Virus record (IMG/VR): IMGVR_UViG_3300042861_001913
Length of the DNA: 64,000 nt
Source of the DNA: a virus
Direction: 5' to 3' (one strand)
In this document: positions 3,498-25,905 of the stretch, piece after piece
Position numbering within the stretch: the first letter of the stretch is position 1
Layout of the letters: every line of letters starts with the position of its first letter
Program-made: the position numbers and the translations under genes
The notes under the pieces: generated by a model
What the model was told of the DNA's origin: nothing
Database searches by the model: none
The model's input: the letters and a program-made list of their open reading frames with translations, nothing else

Positions 3498-4735
3498 ATA
3501 ACCATTATCTGTCATCTCAAATAACTGGATTAACTACTAACATTGTTCAAGAGTTAGTAAGTCCACATAAACACACAATCCGCGATTATGAATCCATACT
3601 TCGTAATCCCTGGGCTAAGGAATGCTGTAATATTAAATCACTCAGAGCAACTGTAACTATAGGTGATTATCAGAATAAGAATAAAGAACATCAGGACTTC
3701 ATACTTGATGCTATAGCTAATATGGATGGCACATTATCTGACATAGTAGGACGATTATGTAGTGCTATGCCATTTGGACATAGTAGTGCTGAAATAGCAT
3801 TTAAACCAATACGTTCATTTGGTAAGACTCGCTACACACTGAAGGGAATTAATCTACTCGATCCTAAGAGAGTGCGTTATGCTGGTGCTGCTGGTAAATT
3901 AACTCATATTCGATATAACGATGGGATTCGTGCATTATGGATTCCTTATAACAAGTGTCTTCATATTACTAACGGATTAGTTACTAACTATAACGAACGT
4001 ACTGCTTATGGTGATCCAGAGTGCGAAACAGCCTATCCATACGTCAAACTATACGAGATTATATTCAGTGAAATGGCGGTTAGTGCTAAGACACTTGCGG
4101 TAGGTATATTACTAGGTCGTGCTGATACTGAGAATACTGTTTACTTACAAAATAAAGATGGTAGTCAATACATAGACGTTAGAACTGGTAAACCTGTAGC
4201 TATTAGTGCTGTAGCTAACCTAGCTGAACAGTTTCAGAACCTTGAAACTCACAGTCATATAGTTACCGATAAACGTAATGAAGTTAGTGCCTTACAGATA
4301 CCAGCAGGTGAACAGTTCTGGAATCTCGCAGAATCTATGTTGCGTAAGAATATATTTGCTGCATTTGGTGTACCTAGTATGGTGCTTGACGAAGGTAGTG
4401 GCGGTATTGCAACTGCTACACTCAGTGTTAAACATTTGTCAATTCTAGATAGTACAGTTGAAGCAACAGTTAAGAAGATTAGAGATCAACTGATTGAGAA
4501 AGTTATACGTCCACTTATTATATGGAACTATGGTGTTCAAGATGATTATGGTAGCTTCGCAGTTACTAATGTTAATGATCCGACTCAGGAGAGCGCACAG
4601 ATACAAAACTTCATAACTGCATTTACTACACAAGTAATACCCATGACTGATCTAGAAGCAATGAATAAGTTTCGTGAGTTGATGAAATTATCACCAACTA
4701 CAGAAGTTAGTCAGCCGGAGACTCAAAGCTATTAA
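3494..4735 (+). CDS. putative portal-like structural protein
   Basis: ATGA overlap with the upstream ORF. The segment ...LRKNIFAAFGVPSMVLDEGSGGIATATL... resembles the conserved core of portal proteins (Mu gp29/DUF935-like). Weak, eye-only call. Confidence 0.35.
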   Translation: MNNHYLSSQITGLTTNIVQELVSPHKHTIRDYESILRNPWAKECCNIKSLRATVTIGDYQNKNKEHQDFILDAIANMDGTLSDIVGRLCSAMPFGHSSAEIAFKPIRSFGKTRYTLKGINLLDPKRVRYAGAAGKLTHIRYNDGIRALWIPYNKCLHITNGLVTNYNERTAYGDPECETAYPYVKLYEIIFSEMAVSAKTLAVGILLGRADTENTVYLQNKDGSQYIDVRTGKPVAISAVANLAEQFQNLETHSHIVTDKRNEVSALQIPAGEQFWNLAESMLRKNIFAAFGVPSMVLDEGSGGIATATLSVKHLSILDSTVEATVKKIRDQLIEKVIRPLIIWNYGVQDDYGSFAVTNVNDPTQESAQIQNFITAFTTQVIPMTDLEAMNKFRELMKLSPTTEVSQPETQSY

Positions 4736-4907
4736 CTAAACTTTGCTTCTTACTTAATTTATTATTTAATCGCTCATGTAGATCATTTATAGAATCTTTA
4801 TAAAATTTAAGTTCGTCCTTAAGTGAATCTACTGTATCCTGGGTATCCTGAATATTATACATACTTATAACCTTGTTTAATTGCATATTGAGCAGTTGCA
4901 TAACCAT
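4707..4907 (-). CDS. hypothetical small coiled-coil protein, last gene of the minus-strand array
   Basis: 66-aa ORF convergent with and overlapping the portal-like gene by 29 nt; heptad-like DSLKDELKFYKDSINDLHERL. Confidence 0.35.
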   Translation of the reverse strand: MVMQLLNMQLNKVISMYNIQDTQDTVDSLKDELKFYKDSINDLHERLNNKLSKKQSLVNSFESPAD

Positions 4908-19676: not shown

Positions 19677-19901
19677 TTAATCTTCAGTTGTTTCAATTAC
19701 AATAGCTTCTTTCAATTTAATTAATTCAGCAATCAATTTATCTTGAGATTCACATTCAATAAACTCTTCTTTCCAATTTCTTATACGTTTAATTACGAAG
19801 AAATCTTTACTAATAGCAATGATACTTATCCATCCATTAGTAATTAGTAAGTTAACTTCTTCTAGTAATTCTAATGCTTTATCTAACATGATTAATTCCA
19901 T
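19677..19901 (-). CDS. hypothetical protein
   Basis: Co-oriented, tightly packed ORF. Confidence 0.5.
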   Translation of the reverse strand: MELIMLDKALELLEEVNLLITNGWISIIAISKDFFVIKRIRNWKEEFIECESQDKLIAELIKLKEAIVIETTED

Positions 19902-20674
19902 CCAAATATGTATTCAATAGCTAACTTAATTAATGGTATGTGTTTAGCAGTATACAATGAATTACCATTAAGTTTAAATAGTGGTTGTTGTTGTGATAGA
20001 TTAAGCCACGCTGATACGAGTTGTCCCGCTCTTATACGTTGACCTTTATCTAAGTTAATTGCATGATCAAGTAAGTAATCCTTCAATATAAATGATTCTG
20101 TAGTTTCCTCAATTAACTGAAACTCTTGTAATGCTTTATCTAAACCAGGATATAGATTTAATACTTCCTGTAGCGCATTATGTTGATTATTTAATTGAGT
20201 TATTTGTTCATCTTTAACTACATTACTTTCAATTAGATATTTAACTTGATCAGAATAATCAGTTTTAATTTGAGTTACTGATTTAGTTAATTCAGCTATT
20301 GCAGATAATAACACATCTTTAGTATCTGAAACATAATACCCTTGTTTTCTTACACTAGGAAGAATCACCTCAGCTACATAATTTGTAAATGCTTCAGCTT
20401 CAGGTTTATTACTACGGAATGCAATTTTATAAACACCAGGTTCATTTATTAACCAAGTGTTATTAGGTATTTGTACTAGGTCAGGAGTTTCCTGAGATGA
20501 TACATCATCATACTGAGCCTTCCATACGTCACTAATTTTATCTAATGATTGAGAACCTGTCCATGCAATATCTAATGCCTTGAACACATCAGCAGCTACA
20601 AACCAAGGATTGCTATCAATCTCAACTACTCTAACTCGATTATCTTGAAAATTAAACAACTGTAATTCTGACAT
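19892..20674 (-). CDS. Bro-N domain antirepressor-like protein
   Basis: LQLFNFQDNRVRVVEIDSNPWFVAADVFKALDI. Confidence 0.7.
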   Translation of the reverse strand: MSELQLFNFQDNRVRVVEIDSNPWFVAADVFKALDIAWTGSQSLDKISDVWKAQYDDVSSQETPDLVQIPNNTWLINEPGVYKIAFRSNKPEAEAFTNYVAEVILPSVRKQGYYVSDTKDVLLSAIAELTKSVTQIKTDYSDQVKYLIESNVVKDEQITQLNNQHNALQEVLNLYPGLDKALQEFQLIEETTESFILKDYLLDHAINLDKGQRIRAGQLVSAWLNLSQQQPLFKLNGNSLYTAKHIPLIKLAIEYIFGWN

Positions 20675-20748
20675 AAATAAAATCTCTGTAAGGTAAGAAA
20701 AAAAGGATTTAGTATTTAAATTATTATTGATTTCATGTATAAAACATA

Positions 20749-21030
20749 TTATTCACTTAACTTCTTATCTAATTTATTTAACTTACTATCAATAACTACT
20801 TCTAAATCATCATTAGTTATTTCAAGCATCATCATTAACTGATTAAGCATTATCATTACATCAGCTAATTCATTTTTAACTTCATAAATGTCAGATTTAC
20901 CATAACGTAAATGTTGTACTTCTAATGATAACTCAGTTAACTCTTCTACTACTTTAATTAACTGTACATCATTACCCCATTTATCTAATGCTTGTTTACA
21001 TAGAGATAATATTCTTTCTTTAACATCCAT
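20749..21030 (-). CDS. mazG: MazG-like nucleotide pyrophosphohydrolase
   Basis: EELTELSLEV...ELADVMIMLNQL. Confidence 0.6.
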   Translation of the reverse strand: MDVKERILSLCKQALDKWGNDVQLIKVVEELTELSLEVQHLRYGKSDIYEVKNELADVMIMLNQLMMMLEITNDDLEVVIDSKLNKLDKKLSE

Positions 21031-21088
21031 AATTAATGAACTCCAATTAAGGTAATAGAGTCAGGATTTAACTGACTCTTAAACTAAG

Positions 21089-21385
21089 TTATTTAAACAA
21101 CACTAACTTAACTAAACTAAACCAGTTCAAGTAGTATCTATACTTAAACTTAGTATCTGTAGCATTAAGTAACTTAACTAAGTTAAATCCAGTTAAATGA
21201 AACTCAATTAACTCACGTCTAGTTAACTCATTAATAAGTAGATAACTTAACTTGAAGTTAACTAACTTATGTAATAACTCACTATTATTAGTTAATGAAT
21301 ATCTAACATTCCAATCAACGTTATTACCATCACTATCATAGAATAGTGTTGTTGAATTAATGGCGGGATTAAGTGTAACTATCAT
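21089..21385 (-). CDS. hypothetical protein
   Basis: Co-oriented ORF; no motif recognised. Confidence 0.5.
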   Translation of the reverse strand: MIVTLNPAINSTTLFYDSDGNNVDWNVRYSLTNNSELLHKLVNFKLSYLLINELTRRELIEFHLTGFNLVKLLNATDTKFKYRYYLNWFSLVKLVLFK

Positions 21386-21711
21386 ACGCTTGTAATATCT
21401 CCAGTTTCTAAATCAATGTAATGAAATTCACCGTTATACCAATACCAAGTTGATTCAACACAATCACTTTCTAGAAAATCATTTACTTCATTACCAATAT
21501 ACACATTATCTACATATATTTCTAGATAACCATCAGGTGTTGTATATTGATTGTAAATTAAACGATCAATAGATGGGGCTATCTTGTTAAAGTGTTCAAC
21601 TATATGTTCTTTAGTTAAATTACCTAATGTATTAGTATCTTTAAATAAAGATAAAAATGATGTGATAACTGAACCAAAATCATTATCGTGAAATCTAATT
21701 CCTATTTTCAT
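21382..21711 (-). CDS. hypothetical protein
   Basis: ATGA overlap with the downstream ORF. Confidence 0.55.
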   Translation of the reverse strand: MKIGIRFHDNDFGSVITSFLSLFKDTNTLGNLTKEHIVEHFNKIAPSIDRLIYNQYTTPDGYLEIYVDNVYIGNEVNDFLESDCVESTWYWYNGEFHYIDLETGDITSV

Positions 21712-21745
21712 AATAATAGAGCTAGATAAACTAGCTCACTAAGTT

Positions 21746-22327
21746 CTACATTACTGATTTAATTGCAGCTACAATATAAGCTACATCATTATCAGCATAG
21801 CGATATCTTTTATCATAAACCTTATTACCTTTAATGGGTGATCTACCTTTGCTGACGCGATACACAGTTGCAGTACGTCTTGTAACTTGATTAACTTGTA
21901 ATTGAGTTAGCGCGAACCCATTATCACGAATATAGTCTTGTGCAGTTACTGGATCATGAGTTATGTTAGCATCAGTTATTTCAGTGATTCCAAGATGCTC
22001 ATAGCTTGCGCCATCATAACTAGTTAAAGGTAATTCACGTTTAACTCTAAATGATTCTACAATTAATGTATTAACTTCATTCTTATTCTGACGTTTAGTT
22101 AACCCAGTTAATAGTACAGCTTGTTGTTTATTGAATAAATAGTAGATGTTACCACCCTTACCTGTACTCTGTTTAGCTATAGTTACTTTACTTAATTCAC
22201 CATAGAACTCAAACTTAGTTAAGTTAACTCTAACTAACTTACGAACATGATCATGAGTAATATTAAGTGTGTTAGCTAGAACACGACTATCTACAGTTAG
22301 AATACCATTGTTATTAACTAGTTGCAT
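21746..22327 (-). CDS. Rha-family phage regulatory protein
   Basis: ILTVDSRVLANTLNITHDHVRKLVR (pRha-like N-terminus). Confidence 0.55.
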   Translation of the reverse strand: MQLVNNNGILTVDSRVLANTLNITHDHVRKLVRVNLTKFEFYGELSKVTIAKQSTGKGGNIYYLFNKQQAVLLTGLTKRQNKNEVNTLIVESFRVKRELPLTSYDGASYEHLGITEITDANITHDPVTAQDYIRDNGFALTQLQVNQVTRRTATVYRVSKGRSPIKGNKVYDKRYRYADNDVAYIVAAIKSVM

Positions 22328-22398
22328 AACTCTAAATTCCTTGATGTTAGTTGATGTGATGTTAAGTTAGTTTAGTAACATAACTTAGGTTAAGTTAA

Positions 22399-22494
22399 TT
22401 AATCTTGAACTAATCTAATTGCGGCAATAATACTAGATATAAAAGCCTGATCATGATTCCCCTCAACGCCAATTAAAACATATTTCCGACTCAC
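22399..22494 (-). pseudogene. 31-codon remnant of the partner gene of the ATPase (Toprim-like/DUF4276-like N-terminus)
   Basis: Its GTG overlaps the ATPase stop (GTGA). It encodes VSRKYVLIGVEGNHDQAFISSIIAAIRLVQD and stops where AT-rich phage DNA resumes. Confidence 0.45.
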
Positions 22495-23627
22495 CAACGC
22501 ACCTCCTGACCTAATTCTTCTCTTAAACGTCTTAATCTATGTCCATCATGTCTAACTACTTTTGTTTTTCCTTCCTTTGGTTCTAAGCGATAAAGCACTA
22601 AATCTGAATCTGATTCAGTTACTTCTAATAAAGCATCAACAGCTTCCAAACTATGGGTAGTTGCAAATAATTGAACATCCATTTCTGTACACCATTTAAC
22701 TAACCATTGAAAAGAGCTTTGTAAGGCTTCTGTGTGAATCGTTGATTCCAATTCATCAATTAAAAGAATACCACCTTTGACGCTGGCAAGTTTAAGAGCT
22801 ATATGTAATAAGCGACGAATACCATCACCAAAGGTGCTAACCGGTGCAAGTCCTAGTTTTTTATGTTGAATATAAATATTGAATCGAGAACTCATAGATT
22901 CTGGAGGTAACAAAATTTCTATATCAGAAATATTGTTATCCATCTGTTGTAATAATTTCACTACATCTGCCTTAAAATATTGATGTGTTGCTTCTGAAAG
23001 TAATCGAAATTGACCAACTTCTGAACGATGAGATGATGGTGTTACTACAGATGTCCTTAGACTTGGTTCTCTCTTTCCAGATAATCTATAAAAACGTTCA
23101 TCCTCCCATAGCGGAAAATTTGTAGGTTCACCAAGTAAACTTAATTGATAATCATCTAGAGATACCTCTATTTTTAGATTAATTCCCTTCCTAGCTCTCG
23201 GTGTATCTTCATTTTCAATTTCTTCTTCGTTGCTAATATTTCTGATATTGCTTTCCTCCGATAACGATATTTGCTCCATTTCTTCATAGCTTGCTATTAA
23301 CTTCTTTACAGAAAATAAACCAGTGCTAGAAATAAGAATAATAGGTTTATCAGGTTCTACAATAGATGCAGAATTATGTGTAAATAACCACTTTATAGCA
23401 TCCAGTAGACGAATACGATATACTCCAATATCCTGCTCTCGTTGATTTGCTGTACTCAGCCACACTTTAATATCTAATGGATGACAGTAGACAGATAATG
23501 CTTCTAGAACACTAGTTTTCCCTGAGTTGTTAAGACCCACAAGCAGGTTAATCCGTCCGAGATCCTTTAGTTCTAAGTCTCGAAGTCCTCTAAATTGATG
23601 AATTGTGACGGTTTCTAAATTTCTCAT
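22491..23627 (-). CDS. ABC/SMC-type AAA_15/AAA_21-like ATPase (defence-module NTPase type)
   Basis: Walker A GLNNSGKTS, signature-like GDGIRR, Walker B ILLIDELESTIH, and ATTHS. GC-richer than the flanks. Confidence 0.7.
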   Translation of the reverse strand: MRNLETVTIHQFRGLRDLELKDLGRINLLVGLNNSGKTSVLEALSVYCHPLDIKVWLSTANQREQDIGVYRIRLLDAIKWLFTHNSASIVEPDKPIILISSTGLFSVKKLIASYEEMEQISLSEESNIRNISNEEEIENEDTPRARKGINLKIEVSLDDYQLSLLGEPTNFPLWEDERFYRLSGKREPSLRTSVVTPSSHRSEVGQFRLLSEATHQYFKADVVKLLQQMDNNISDIEILLPPESMSSRFNIYIQHKKLGLAPVSTFGDGIRRLLHIALKLASVKGGILLIDELESTIHTEALQSSFQWLVKWCTEMDVQLFATTHSLEAVDALLEVTESDSDLVLYRLEPKEGKTKVVRHDGHRLRRLREELGQEVRW

Positions 23628-23674
23628 AGACTTATTTTAGCTCAAGCTGTATACCATAGATTATTTTTCTTACC

Positions 23675-25114
23675 TTATACGTTATCGTCATTAATTACTA
23701 CTTCATCTTCATCATCTATCAAGCTATCTAAATCTTCAGCAGCTTGTCCAGTAACTGTACTAAATACAGTTCCATCTGGTTCAACAATGTTAATAATCTT
23801 AATATCCATATCGTTAATTAATCCTATTTTAGTTATTTCACGTATTGTTCGATTGATGTAGTGATCATAATTAATGTTGTGGTCATCAGCATCATAATAA
23901 TCATTGAACAATGTTACTACATTACCACTAGCATATACAACTTCTTTCTCACCTTGATACTCGATTGTCTCATATACAGCAGGTATATTAACTCTATCGG
24001 ATACCTTAGTTGTGAAGTTCTTCATACGACCACTAGCGGGATTAATGCGTCGTTCTGTCTCATATACAGCAGGAATTATGATGCGTTCACTAACTAATCT
24101 CTTCTCCCTCTTAGTACCTATAGTGACCTTCTTGAGTATGATATCGCGTCCAGTAGGATTACTCACAAAGAATCTGAGTGTCTTCTGTAACTCAGTTCGT
24201 TCAGTTACTAATCCATCTTCAATTAGATAGGAGTAATTAGTAAACTGACTACCTACTTTCTGACTAATACAGAAGTCATATATGTCCTTGTGACCTCGAA
24301 TAAAGTCATTTGGATGTATTCCTTCTAAATAATATTTCTGCAAGGCTAGAGCTACAATTGGAGCATCAAAGCCCTTAAGAATACCGTTAATTGGAAGATA
24401 CTTACCATTACTGCTAGGTAAATCGTAAGAAAAAAGAGGTTCAAGTGTTGCTCCCTGTGGAACGAAACTACCCTTAATCTTAACTGTACCGTCAGTTTTA
24501 CGCGCTAAATAATTATTGACATCTCGGCGTACATATAAATCATACTCAGCATATTCAAAAGTAAACTTAGTTTCAGTTTCCCATTCCTCAATAATTGACT
24601 TAACTGAATCTACTTCTAACTTATGGATGTACAACAATATACCATCTGTATTAACAGATATGATATTGTGGTTAGCTAAATGTAACCGTTCTATTATCTG
24701 TAATAGAAATAGTTGATTGTTAACAGTTGTTTTGTAAGTACATAACAAATCACTTAAAAGGAAATTAGCGTATCCAAACAAACCAAAACACGAATTGAGC
24801 GATATCTTGAGTCCGTACTCTAATGCAGCATATATTACACTTTCTTTCTTACGTTTCTTATATGCCTTACGATCATTAAGTGCATCAAGTAATGTCTCAA
24901 TAAATAATTCTAAATCTAAGTGTTCTGGTGCAATACCGTAGTTAATAATAGCTGATGGGTAAAATGAGACGATATCCGCATCTAATAATACGTAGTCGTT
25001 TTCAGCTTTGAATATCCCTGGTTTATCAACACTATGTAAACCTCCAAGCCCAAGTTGGATTGTTAAATCACCTATTGTTACGGGTGGTAATTTAAGATCA
25101 AAGTTTTTACTCAT
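23675..25114 (-). CDS. family-B DNA polymerase, polymerase domain ORF
   Basis: DADIVSFYPSAI (motif A), KISLNSCFGLFGY (motif B) and SVNTDGI (motif C variant). Internal IPAVYET duplication. Confidence 0.75.
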   Translation of the reverse strand: MSKNFDLKLPPVTIGDLTIQLGLGGLHSVDKPGIFKAENDYVLLDADIVSFYPSAIINYGIAPEHLDLELFIETLLDALNDRKAYKKRKKESVIYAALEYGLKISLNSCFGLFGYANFLLSDLLCTYKTTVNNQLFLLQIIERLHLANHNIISVNTDGILLYIHKLEVDSVKSIIEEWETETKFTFEYAEYDLYVRRDVNNYLARKTDGTVKIKGSFVPQGATLEPLFSYDLPSSNGKYLPINGILKGFDAPIVALALQKYYLEGIHPNDFIRGHKDIYDFCISQKVGSQFTNYSYLIEDGLVTERTELQKTLRFFVSNPTGRDIILKKVTIGTKREKRLVSERIIIPAVYETERRINPASGRMKNFTTKVSDRVNIPAVYETIEYQGEKEVVYASGNVVTLFNDYYDADDHNINYDHYINRTIREITKIGLINDMDIKIINIVEPDGTVFSTVTGQAAEDLDSLIDDEDEVVINDDNV

Positions 25115-25905
25115 GTTAGCTTTATCTCTTTTAATTGAGTTAGATATTCCTGAAGTTGCGGTGTCTTAAATGTAATAGCTGGATTAATTACATCCTTGAA
25201 ATCAATAGTCTTTCTAACTGTCCTACCATACTTAATCTTCTTAACATCAATATTAGGATTCTTAGCTTTAACTTTATCAACATATAACTTACGGAATAAT
25301 TCCTTACCTATTCCAGAATCACTTAAACTATTTAGATTAAGCTTATAACTCTCACTTAATAACTCACGCATCTCTAGTCGAGGTTTAAGATACTCAAGTA
25401 CCTTATAAGTTATATCAAGATCATTCTTGTTGTAATCAATAAGTAAGTTAAGTTGATCTGGTCTAACTTCATCTAGATAATGTATGGGTAAATCTTGTAT
25501 TCTATGATGTTTAAGATTAACTCCACACATCTTGAGCGACGTGGTGTTAAATCCAGCACGTAGAACTTCTAATACATCGTAAGAAACAAAGGGGAGGTCA
25601 TACCTATATGGATTGCGGTCGCCATTAATTAGAGTTTGTGCAAATTCCCACAATTCTAACTTACTGATATTAGGATGACGTAAAAGATGCACTAATACAG
25701 CATCGTCAAAGTTCCATCCATTGAAGCTAATTAATATAGAATTAGTTGCAATGAAGTTAGCTAAATCGCGCCTATCATCAGTATCGTCATACCATAGATA
25801 AGTCTTATATTCACTAGTTGCAAGTGAATAAGTAGTTAAGCAAAATAGGTTCTTGTATATCTCAATATCATATACATAACCATTGTCATATAATTTCTCT
25901 AACAT
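25111..25905 (-). CDS. family-B DNA polymerase, 3'-5' exonuclease domain ORF
   Basis: YDIEIY (ExoI), NGWNFDDAVL (ExoII) and YNKNDLDITYKV (ExoIII). Its stop overlaps the polymerase ORF start (ATGA). Confidence 0.7.
   Translation of the reverse strand: MLEKLYDNGYVYDIEIYKNLFCLTTYSLATSEYKTYLWYDDTDDRRDLANFIATNSILISFNGWNFDDAVLVHLLRHPNISKLELWEFAQTLINGDRNPYRYDLPFVSYDVLEVLRAGFNTTSLKMCGVNLKHHRIQDLPIHYLDEVRPDQLNLLIDYNKNDLDITYKVLEYLKPRLEMRELLSESYKLNLNSLSDSGIGKELFRKLYVDKVKAKNPNIDVKKIKYGRTVRKTIDFKDVINPAITFKTPQLQEYLTQLKEIKLT

Follow-up and report, generated by a model that had tools for sequence, protein, structure and literature searches.

A 64,000-nucleotide (nt) stretch of viral DNA (IMG/VR virus record IMGVR_UViG_3300042861_001913), here called the window, contains an intact open reading frame (ORF) for an ATP-binding cassette (ABC) ATPase, which is placed between the DNA polymerase gene (polB) and a Rha-like gene and is followed by a second ORF of only 31 codons. 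An original prediction, made from the letters of this stretch alone, held that, of a cellular two-gene module captured by the phage, the ATPase half alone has been retained, and homology supported this view. Sequence comparison shows that the slot between polB and the Rha-like gene, whose cargo varies, is occupied by a piece of the chromosome of an Aphanizomenon/Dolichospermum-group host. The captured block and its margins show the following features, all on the minus strand.

22433..23670: host-derived block of 1,238 bp, consisting of 43 nt of host upstream DNA, the whole ATPase gene, and the start of the DUF3226 partner gene as far as 2 nt beyond codon 20 (delimited by MAFFT and blastn comparison with about 30 host loci)
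22491..23627: intact ORF of the ABC-type ATPase, 378 amino acids (aa), PDC-M38A/AbiLi-like with AAA_15 and AAA_21 (ORF listing and profile searches)
23663..23670: left capture junction, an 8-nt microhomology AGAAAAAT common to the phage iterated word and the host sequence
22399..22494: remnant ORF of 31 codons, VSRKYVLIGVEGNHDQAFISSIIAAIRLVQD (GTG start at 22494; the stop ends at 22399)
22399..22432: phage-derived tail, the 3′ end of an older small ORF ending in LVQD-stop, which resembles the LIQD-stop of a type-B small ORF

We regard this origin and anatomy of the block as close to certain. The ATPase ORF was found as predicted, with Walker A GLNNSGKTS, Walker B ILLIDELESTIH, and ATTHS, and so was the short second ORF, whose GTG start overlaps the TGA stop of the ATPase gene as GTGA. 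The predicted location between the polB stop (TAA, 23675-23677, on the upstream side of the ATPase gene) and the Rha-like gene (21746..22327) was likewise correct. The prediction had also let the foreign DNA run to the end of the 31-codon ORF, but host DNA ends at 22433. Codons 1 to 20 of this ORF are the N terminus of the host partner, and codons 21 to 31 plus the stop are phage DNA.

The block was captured from a cyanobacterial host

A protein search with the ATPase returned 1,787 homologues, the best 120 of which were all cyanobacterial (75-97% identity); source names among the homologues include Aphanizomenon flos-aquae, Dolichospermum circinale, Anabaena, and Cuspidothrix. At the DNA level, phage and host were 93.6-96.2% identical over the whole block, with 96.1-96.2% identity to co-occurring host alleles (L064-L069 and L074-L076). 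Homology to close hosts always spanned query positions 131-1376, corresponding to window positions 23670 to 22425/22433, and its boundaries were sharp, so that the block starts at about 23670, 43 nt 5′ of the ATPase ATG.

The phage iterated word GTAAGAAAAA is located at 23664..23673, directly after the polB stop, and its host counterpart is TTTTAGAAAAATAATC. Relatives of the phage that lack the block (L017 and L080-L084) read GGTAAGAAAAAT/GGTG after the polB stop (the slash marks the junction), while hosts read AGAAAAAT/AATCTATGG (TTTTAGAAAAAT/AATC). The left junction therefore falls in an 8-nt microhomology inside the iterated word of the phage, which points to illegitimate recombination. Little or no microhomology was seen at the right junction between 22433 and 22432 (CTAG/TATTATT). 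Since the phage copy is nested within Dolichospermum/Aphanizomenon alleles and the module is widespread in hosts, the transfer was from host to phage. Of the two-part system of its host, the phage acquired the non-effector half alone.

An IMG/VR scan with the ATPase matched this phage alone. INPHARED contained no phage similar by DNA, and comparison by ATPase protein gave just a 33% partial match there. Identity with cyanophage vB_AphaS-CL131 was rejected (CL131 has a G+C content [GC] of 39.7% and 112.8 kb; PMC6293099). The idea of a prophage was rejected as well, as a related polB was present in just 1 of 301 Nostocaceae genomes, at 63% identity. This polB relative (L087/L088, G124:C247:75143-76546) is part of an 11.3-Mb Nostocaceae assembly and has an in-frame TAG between its two matching pieces; it may represent a related phage or prophage.

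The ATPase is intact and PDC-M38A-like

The ATPase matched the PADLOC PDC-M38A model PDLC04608 with residues 1-377 on profile positions 1-366 of 367 (E = 2.8e-73) and the AbiLi model PDLC02336 with residues 6-365 (E = 3.3e-39). Weaker PADLOC matches were obtained for the AriA models (E = 2.1e-19) and for GajA, PtuA, and Old. AAA_21 and AAA_15 were the Pfam matches, and PHROGs yielded families of unknown function only. Of the families originally suggested, AAA_15/AAA_21 and AbiL thus held, the latter as an AbiLi-like profile match, whereas OLD, Gabija, and Septu did not, and the system is the candidate PDC-M38. The OLD/GajA architecture, in which the ATPase is fused to a Toprim domain, was not found: the 378-aa protein is an ATPase only, and the GajA and Old models cover ATPase segments alone. 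PDC-M38 (A, ABC ATPase; B, DUF3226 protein) is a PADLOC candidate predicted by genetic embedding (Payne et al. 2024, bioRxiv 10.1101/2024.01.29.577857); a full-text literature search for "DUF3226" or "PDC-M38" returned no papers.

In an alignment of 22 family sequences, the phage ATPase keeps every invariant column, including K37, D291/E292, and H325. Conservation of the Walker A Lys, the Walker B Asp-Glu, and the H-loop His predicts a catalytically competent enzyme. An AlphaFold2 (AF2) model of the phage ATPase, built from the 22 sequences, had a predicted local distance difference test (pLDDT) score of 55 and was too poor for a fold search.

Hosts carry a DUF3226 partner that the phage has lost

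The search for an intact two-gene donor led to about 30 cyanobacterial loci with the ATPase. A DUF3226 partner gene is next in every host locus for which downstream DNA is available, is mostly full length (247-269 aa in most loci), and begins with the same N terminus as the phage stub. The host partner genes start with GTG in a GTGA overlap with the ATPase stop; the protein begins VSRKYVLIGVEG, and its near-invariant N-terminal peptide is VSRKYVLIGVEGxHDQAF. Host partner P0121 matched PF11536 (DUF3226; E = 3.9e-28) and PDC-M38B (E = 2.4e-15), so that the donor operon matches both the A and the B models of PDC-M38. At E ≤ 0.01, P0121 was matched by PDC-M38B models alone and by no AbiLii model, and a match of the host partner to AriB/DUF4435 was absent even at E ≤ 10, where DUF3226 was the only hit.

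The partner had originally been taken for a Toprim-like or DUF4276-type protein. It turned out to be DUF3226 (PF11536) and not DUF4276, and Toprim likeness was not confirmed by hidden Markov model (HMM) or Foldseek searches: Foldseek against the PDB, a PDB-sequence profile search, and Pfam at E ≤ 10 gave PH0156 (2p62)/DUF3226 only. In an AF2 model of the host DUF3226 protein (pLDDT, 80; predicted template modeling score, 0.82), the invariant E11 follows beta-1 and the invariant D107xD109 follows a later strand, both at strand ends. This modeled arrangement appears Toprim-like in layout.

In the phage, the B subunit is represented by 20 codons alone. The 31-aa stub product aligned weakly with the first 20-25 profile positions (DUF3226, E = 0.033; PDC-M38B, E = 0.017) and includes the invariant Glu of the LIGVEG sequence at the partner N terminus. 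As the stub retains just beta-1 and this Glu, it cannot be a functional effector.

A phage with the ATPase but no effector could still draw its own competitive benefit from the gene, by raising the level of the host sensor so that superinfecting rivals trigger abortive infection or by pairing the ATPase with another phage effector. PARIS-type systems are often borne by phages and satellites against rivals (PMC11464382, PMC9122126), and the ATPase looks catalytically intact. However, tblastn, applied to the 64-kb window and not to the roughly 58 kb of the phage beyond it, detected no other partner-like gene, no INPHARED phage has a partner protein, and exclusion without an effector would rely wholly on the host copy. 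We therefore consider this explanation improbable.

The host module is of the defense type in its surroundings, which include an MmeI-like restriction-modification enzyme, BrnT, and a Schlafen/AlbA_2 protein. Within the host genus, the partner was detected in 9 of 20 species genomes, and PDC-M38-type modules are spread over Nostocales, Pseudanabaena, and Microcystaceae. In three host loci the DUF3226 gene is frameshifted and the ATPase intact (L077:4161-4947, L046:4173-4939, and L053:4143-4912), and the gene is possibly also frameshifted in L047. The partner gene appears to evolve faster than the ATPase gene and to decay first. Between hosts L010 and L064, the partner protein is about 88% identical and the ATPase block has 42 differing bases (about 3%).

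Neighboring genes and base composition

Two phage genes flank the slot, both on the minus strand.

23675..25114: upstream neighbor, the polymerase-domain ORF of a split family-B-like DNA polymerase (phrog_1252, E = 4.8e-73)
21746..22327: downstream neighbor, a Rha/anti-repressor-like gene (profile searches)

The DNA polymerase is encoded by two ORFs with an ATGA overlap (window 23675-25905), which correspond to an exonuclease part of 264 aa and a polymerase part of 479 aa. In the relative L017 (2603-6131), the polymerase part is in three pieces, split by two GIY-YIG homing-endonuclease ORFs (L017:2764-3423 and 3897-4817). The ATPase gene has the same orientation as polB and the Rha-like gene, with zero terminators between them; the sole terminator-like site on the minus strand is located 3′ of the Rha-like gene (21737..21719).

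Composition was rejected as a sign of foreign origin. The block had been described as a visibly GC-richer island, but its GC of 34.9% compares with a window mean of 32.0% (standard deviation, 2.2% for windows of the same size), and 7.6% of such windows are equally high. The polB flank has 33.6% GC, and the GC at third codon positions of the block (0.20) is within the phage range. The lack of the iterated word, which had also been put forward, carries no weight: about 0.95 copies are expected per 1.24 kb, the probability of finding none is 0.39, and one copy (23664..23673) coincides with the left junction.

The insert is accessory in the phage population

Related phages were checked for presence or absence of the block. 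The ATPase insert is accessory in the phage population, where ATPase-bearing, scar-deletion, and insert-free forms coexist. The scar deletion is defined as follows.

22458..23637 (no strand assigned): stretch of 1,180 bp absent from the scar-deletion relatives G001/L016, L082, and L085, with host-derived stubs left on both sides

These contigs come from different samples and assemblies. Because host-derived stubs flank the deletion, it represents a secondary deletion and not an empty site. Among the insert-free forms, L017 (polB 89% identical) has a 53-aa ORF in the slot instead of the block, and the type-B contigs L080-L084 have other small ORFs there. The cargo of the spacer that separates polB from the Rha-like gene varies, and the iterated word invariably comes first (L080:3151-3500, L017:6132-6399, and window 22328-23674). 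ATPase-bearing phages fall into at least four haplotypes with the same two junctions and near-identical backbones.

Window/L001-L005: ATPase of 378 aa
L006-L008: ATPase of 378 aa
L079: ATPase of 383 aa
L070/L072/L073: ATPase of 386 aa

These locus states bear on the main alternative to a function in the phage, namely, that the block is a neutral passenger: host DNA picked up recently and accidentally by illegitimate recombination, without function, and in the course of being lost. The ORF would then be intact only through the young age of the capture and overwriting by host alleles. Scar-deletion and block-less forms are common, the slot houses different small ORFs in relatives and hence tolerates arbitrary cargo, and composition and codon use of the block are indistinguishable from those of its flanks, all of which fit this explanation. 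It accounts less well for the occurrence of the block in at least four haplotypes, in dozens of contigs, and across many samples and assemblers. Nor does it readily explain why the block holds exactly one complete gene together with its upstream region and breaks off within the effector gene. Few host fragments of 1.2 kb picked at random would correspond precisely to the non-toxic half of a defense-type pair, and we counted this for a function of the ATPase as a decoy. Taken together, we judge the passenger explanation to be a serious possibility but a doubtful one.

Phage alleles resemble mosaics of local host alleles

The haplotypes, all of which come from short-read metagenome assemblies, differ from each other mainly inside the block. 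Between the window and L070, 26 of 1,238 positions differ in the block and 6 of 4,773 in the flanks (p = 3e-13); for L006 and L079, the corresponding counts are 22 of 1,238 and 8 of 4,667 (p = 1e-9). Block divergence is thus about 15-fold that of the flanks between almost identical phage backbones. Each haplotype was seen again in independent assemblies, and right-end variants are located ≤33 nt from phage-only sequence.

The differences between haplotypes are patchy, and both states are usually present in sampled host alleles. In trees with host alleles, those of the phages do not group together (monophyly in 0% of bootstrap trees), and they have 0-1 private bases in comparison to 17 host alleles. 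Stretches of 150-450 nt match the co-occurring hosts L064/L074 without a single difference (100% identity), and phage L079 differs from host L074 at only 6 of 1,253 bases. A 5-aa "deletion" of the window allele is also present in host locus L077 and is therefore not a phage adaptation. These patterns suggest that the phage alleles are mosaics of local host alleles which arise by ongoing gene conversion between phage and host. Given the identical junctions, it is simplest to assume that the block was captured once and has since been converted repeatedly by the resident host genes. The scarcity of private substitutions, which makes the ratio of nonsynonymous to synonymous substitution rates in the phage lineage impossible to compute, is also what would be expected of a neutral passenger with no phage-specific evolution.

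Phage-phage shuffling is added on top, because the cassette 3′ of the Rha-like gene varies, too. In this second variable cassette (window ~19892-21745), the next ORF encodes 109 aa in the window and L070 and 104 aa in L006 and L079, and about 120 differences between backbones that are otherwise ~99.9% identical point to phage-phage mosaicism. Close to the right junction (window 22440-22465), 5 sites distinguish two phage haplotypes; all lie within 33 nt of the junction, and the closest is 7 nt from it. Both states of these sites exist among sampled host alleles, and the five-site combination of the window is that of L043/L048. A conversion tract that ends so near to the end of homology is hard to account for by an ordinary crossover.

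Two reciprocal hybrid contigs were observed: L071:1-7161 consists of a host-left flank, the block, and a phage-right flank, and L078:1-4491 consists of phage polB, the block, a complete host DUF3226 gene, and a host flank. Chimeric assembly at the ~1.2-kb block common to both genomes is the probable origin of these contigs, but genuine products of a crossover between phage and host chromosome are conceivable. The hybrids would fit a role of the block as a portable homology arm, in which 1.24 kb of host-identical DNA would allow recombination with the host chromosome and thereby integration, transduction, or the uptake of neighboring genes. The mosaic alleles, too, show recombination within the block. 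We nevertheless regard such a role as very unlikely: L071 and L078 were both assembled from short reads (k141) in samples where phage and host genomes are present together, chimeric joins at a shared repeat are expected there, and the rarity of a related polB (1 of 301 Nostocaceae genomes) argues that the phage is no common prophage.

The existence of chimeric contigs at the block also raises the question of whether a host-only block was stitched into the phage contig during assembly. This is scarcely credible, since the same two phage-host junctions recur in ENA, JGI, Logan, and NCBI assemblies of different samples, the scar-deletion variant holds host-derived stubs inside a pure phage context, and the junction-proximal variants are as close to phage-only sequence as stated above.

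A proposed decoy function of the captured ATPase

We propose that the phage ATPase acts as a subunit-mimic decoy or sponge against the host system. By analogy with known systems, this is the most likely reading, although we hold it to be about evenly balanced between right and wrong. An ATPase identical to that of the host, made by a phage without the effector, would join the host complex or compete with it. It might lower the share of complexes loaded with effector, sequester the trigger, or bind the effector again, and titration of trigger or effector would blunt the abortive defense much as an orphan antitoxin would. The PARIS nuclease AriB is held by a hexamer of AriA, which also binds the phage trigger and sets the nuclease free (PMC11464382), and a review groups AbiL and a Nostoc pair with PARIS (PMC13064643). 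Phages are known to use such routes: PhiTE takes ToxI from the host toxIN locus by recombination (PMC3475682), AdfN is an orphan antitoxin-like phage protein directed against DarTG1 (PMC11825919), and an antitoxin mimic of ICP1 provides a further counter-defense precedent (PMC11481870). We also counted for the decoy that the motifs and the family-invariant residues of the ATPase are intact and that the gene runs in the same direction as polB and the Rha-like gene, with no terminator in between.

Several points weigh against the decoy. AriA is required for AriB activation in PARIS, and surplus ATPase need not inhibit. PDC-M38 is only a "guilt-by-embedding" candidate (bioRxiv 10.1101/2024.01.29.577857), and the DUF3226 partner is a putative nuclease for which Foldseek and profile searches gave no Toprim match. 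The ATPase is dispensable, given the scar deletion in at least three independent assemblies and the lack of the block in many close relatives. There are no phage-specific substitutions and hence no sign of adaptation in the phage, and conversion from functional host genes could be enough to keep the ORF intact. Finally, near-identical host and phage paths can mix in short-read assemblies.

A more specific form of the decoy proposal, which we think unlikely, is that the decoy updates itself: homologous recombination during infections would replace the phage ATPase again and again with the local host allele, so that the mimic always matched the defense complex of the population under infection. 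The counter-defense would owe its upkeep to gene conversion, not to mutation and selection.

Should the ATPase weaken the host system, the locus would be a natural case of a phage taking the safe half of a PARIS/AbiL-like pair in a bloom-forming cyanobacterium; examples of such capture have so far come mainly from laboratory models and concern RNA or enzymatic antitoxins. It would also be a first indication that PDC-M38 is a real anti-phage system aimed at this phage, with the ATPase as its neutralizing or sensing part. For an abundant, uncultured freshwater cyanophage of 122 kb, a host can be assigned from the near-identity of the block to co-occurring Aphanizomenon/Dolichospermum alleles. 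The small ORFs at the slot in relatives, the 1,180-bp scar deletion, and the mosaic haplotypes are new here, and the coexistence of insert, scar-deletion, and insert-free forms, together with the apparent exchange of alleles, offers a natural comparison for the gain, upkeep, and loss of a counter-defense gene.

Comparison with known systems

The closest likeness is to PDC-M38, since the phage ATPase matches the A model end to end and the host operon matches A and B; the phage differs in carrying A plus a 20-codon stub of B only, and PDC-M38 is itself a candidate system. Lactococcus AbiL (AbiLi and AbiLii) shares the order of an ABC ATPase followed by a small effector, and the phage ATPase is of the AbiLi type, whereas the host partner is DUF3226 with no AbiLii match. 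With Escherichia coli PARIS, which consists of the scaffold/sensor AriA and the Toprim nuclease AriB, the locus shares the two-gene logic and a match to the AriA models, but the partner matches neither AriB/DUF4435 nor Toprim, so that an AriA-AriB pair is not present. An N-terminal motif of three hydrophobic residues and VEG (hhhVEG) and an ADxD motif in the host partner recall both AbiL and PARIS, whose mechanism would apply to the phage ATPase by analogy only. Like PhiTE with ToxI, the phage gained by recombination with its host only the non-toxic half of a two-part system, which in the case of ToxI is an abortive-infection system; ToxI, however, is an RNA antitoxin that was selected in the laboratory with proven escape, whereas here a protein ATPase occurs in natural populations and its effect is predicted. 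AdfN and the ICP1 mimic are, like the ATPase, phage-borne stand-alone homologues of the neutralizing component of a host toxin-antitoxin-type defense. These are diverged enzymes that undo the chemistry of the toxin, whereas the phage ATPase is 96-100% identical to that of the host and would act by mimicry or titration.

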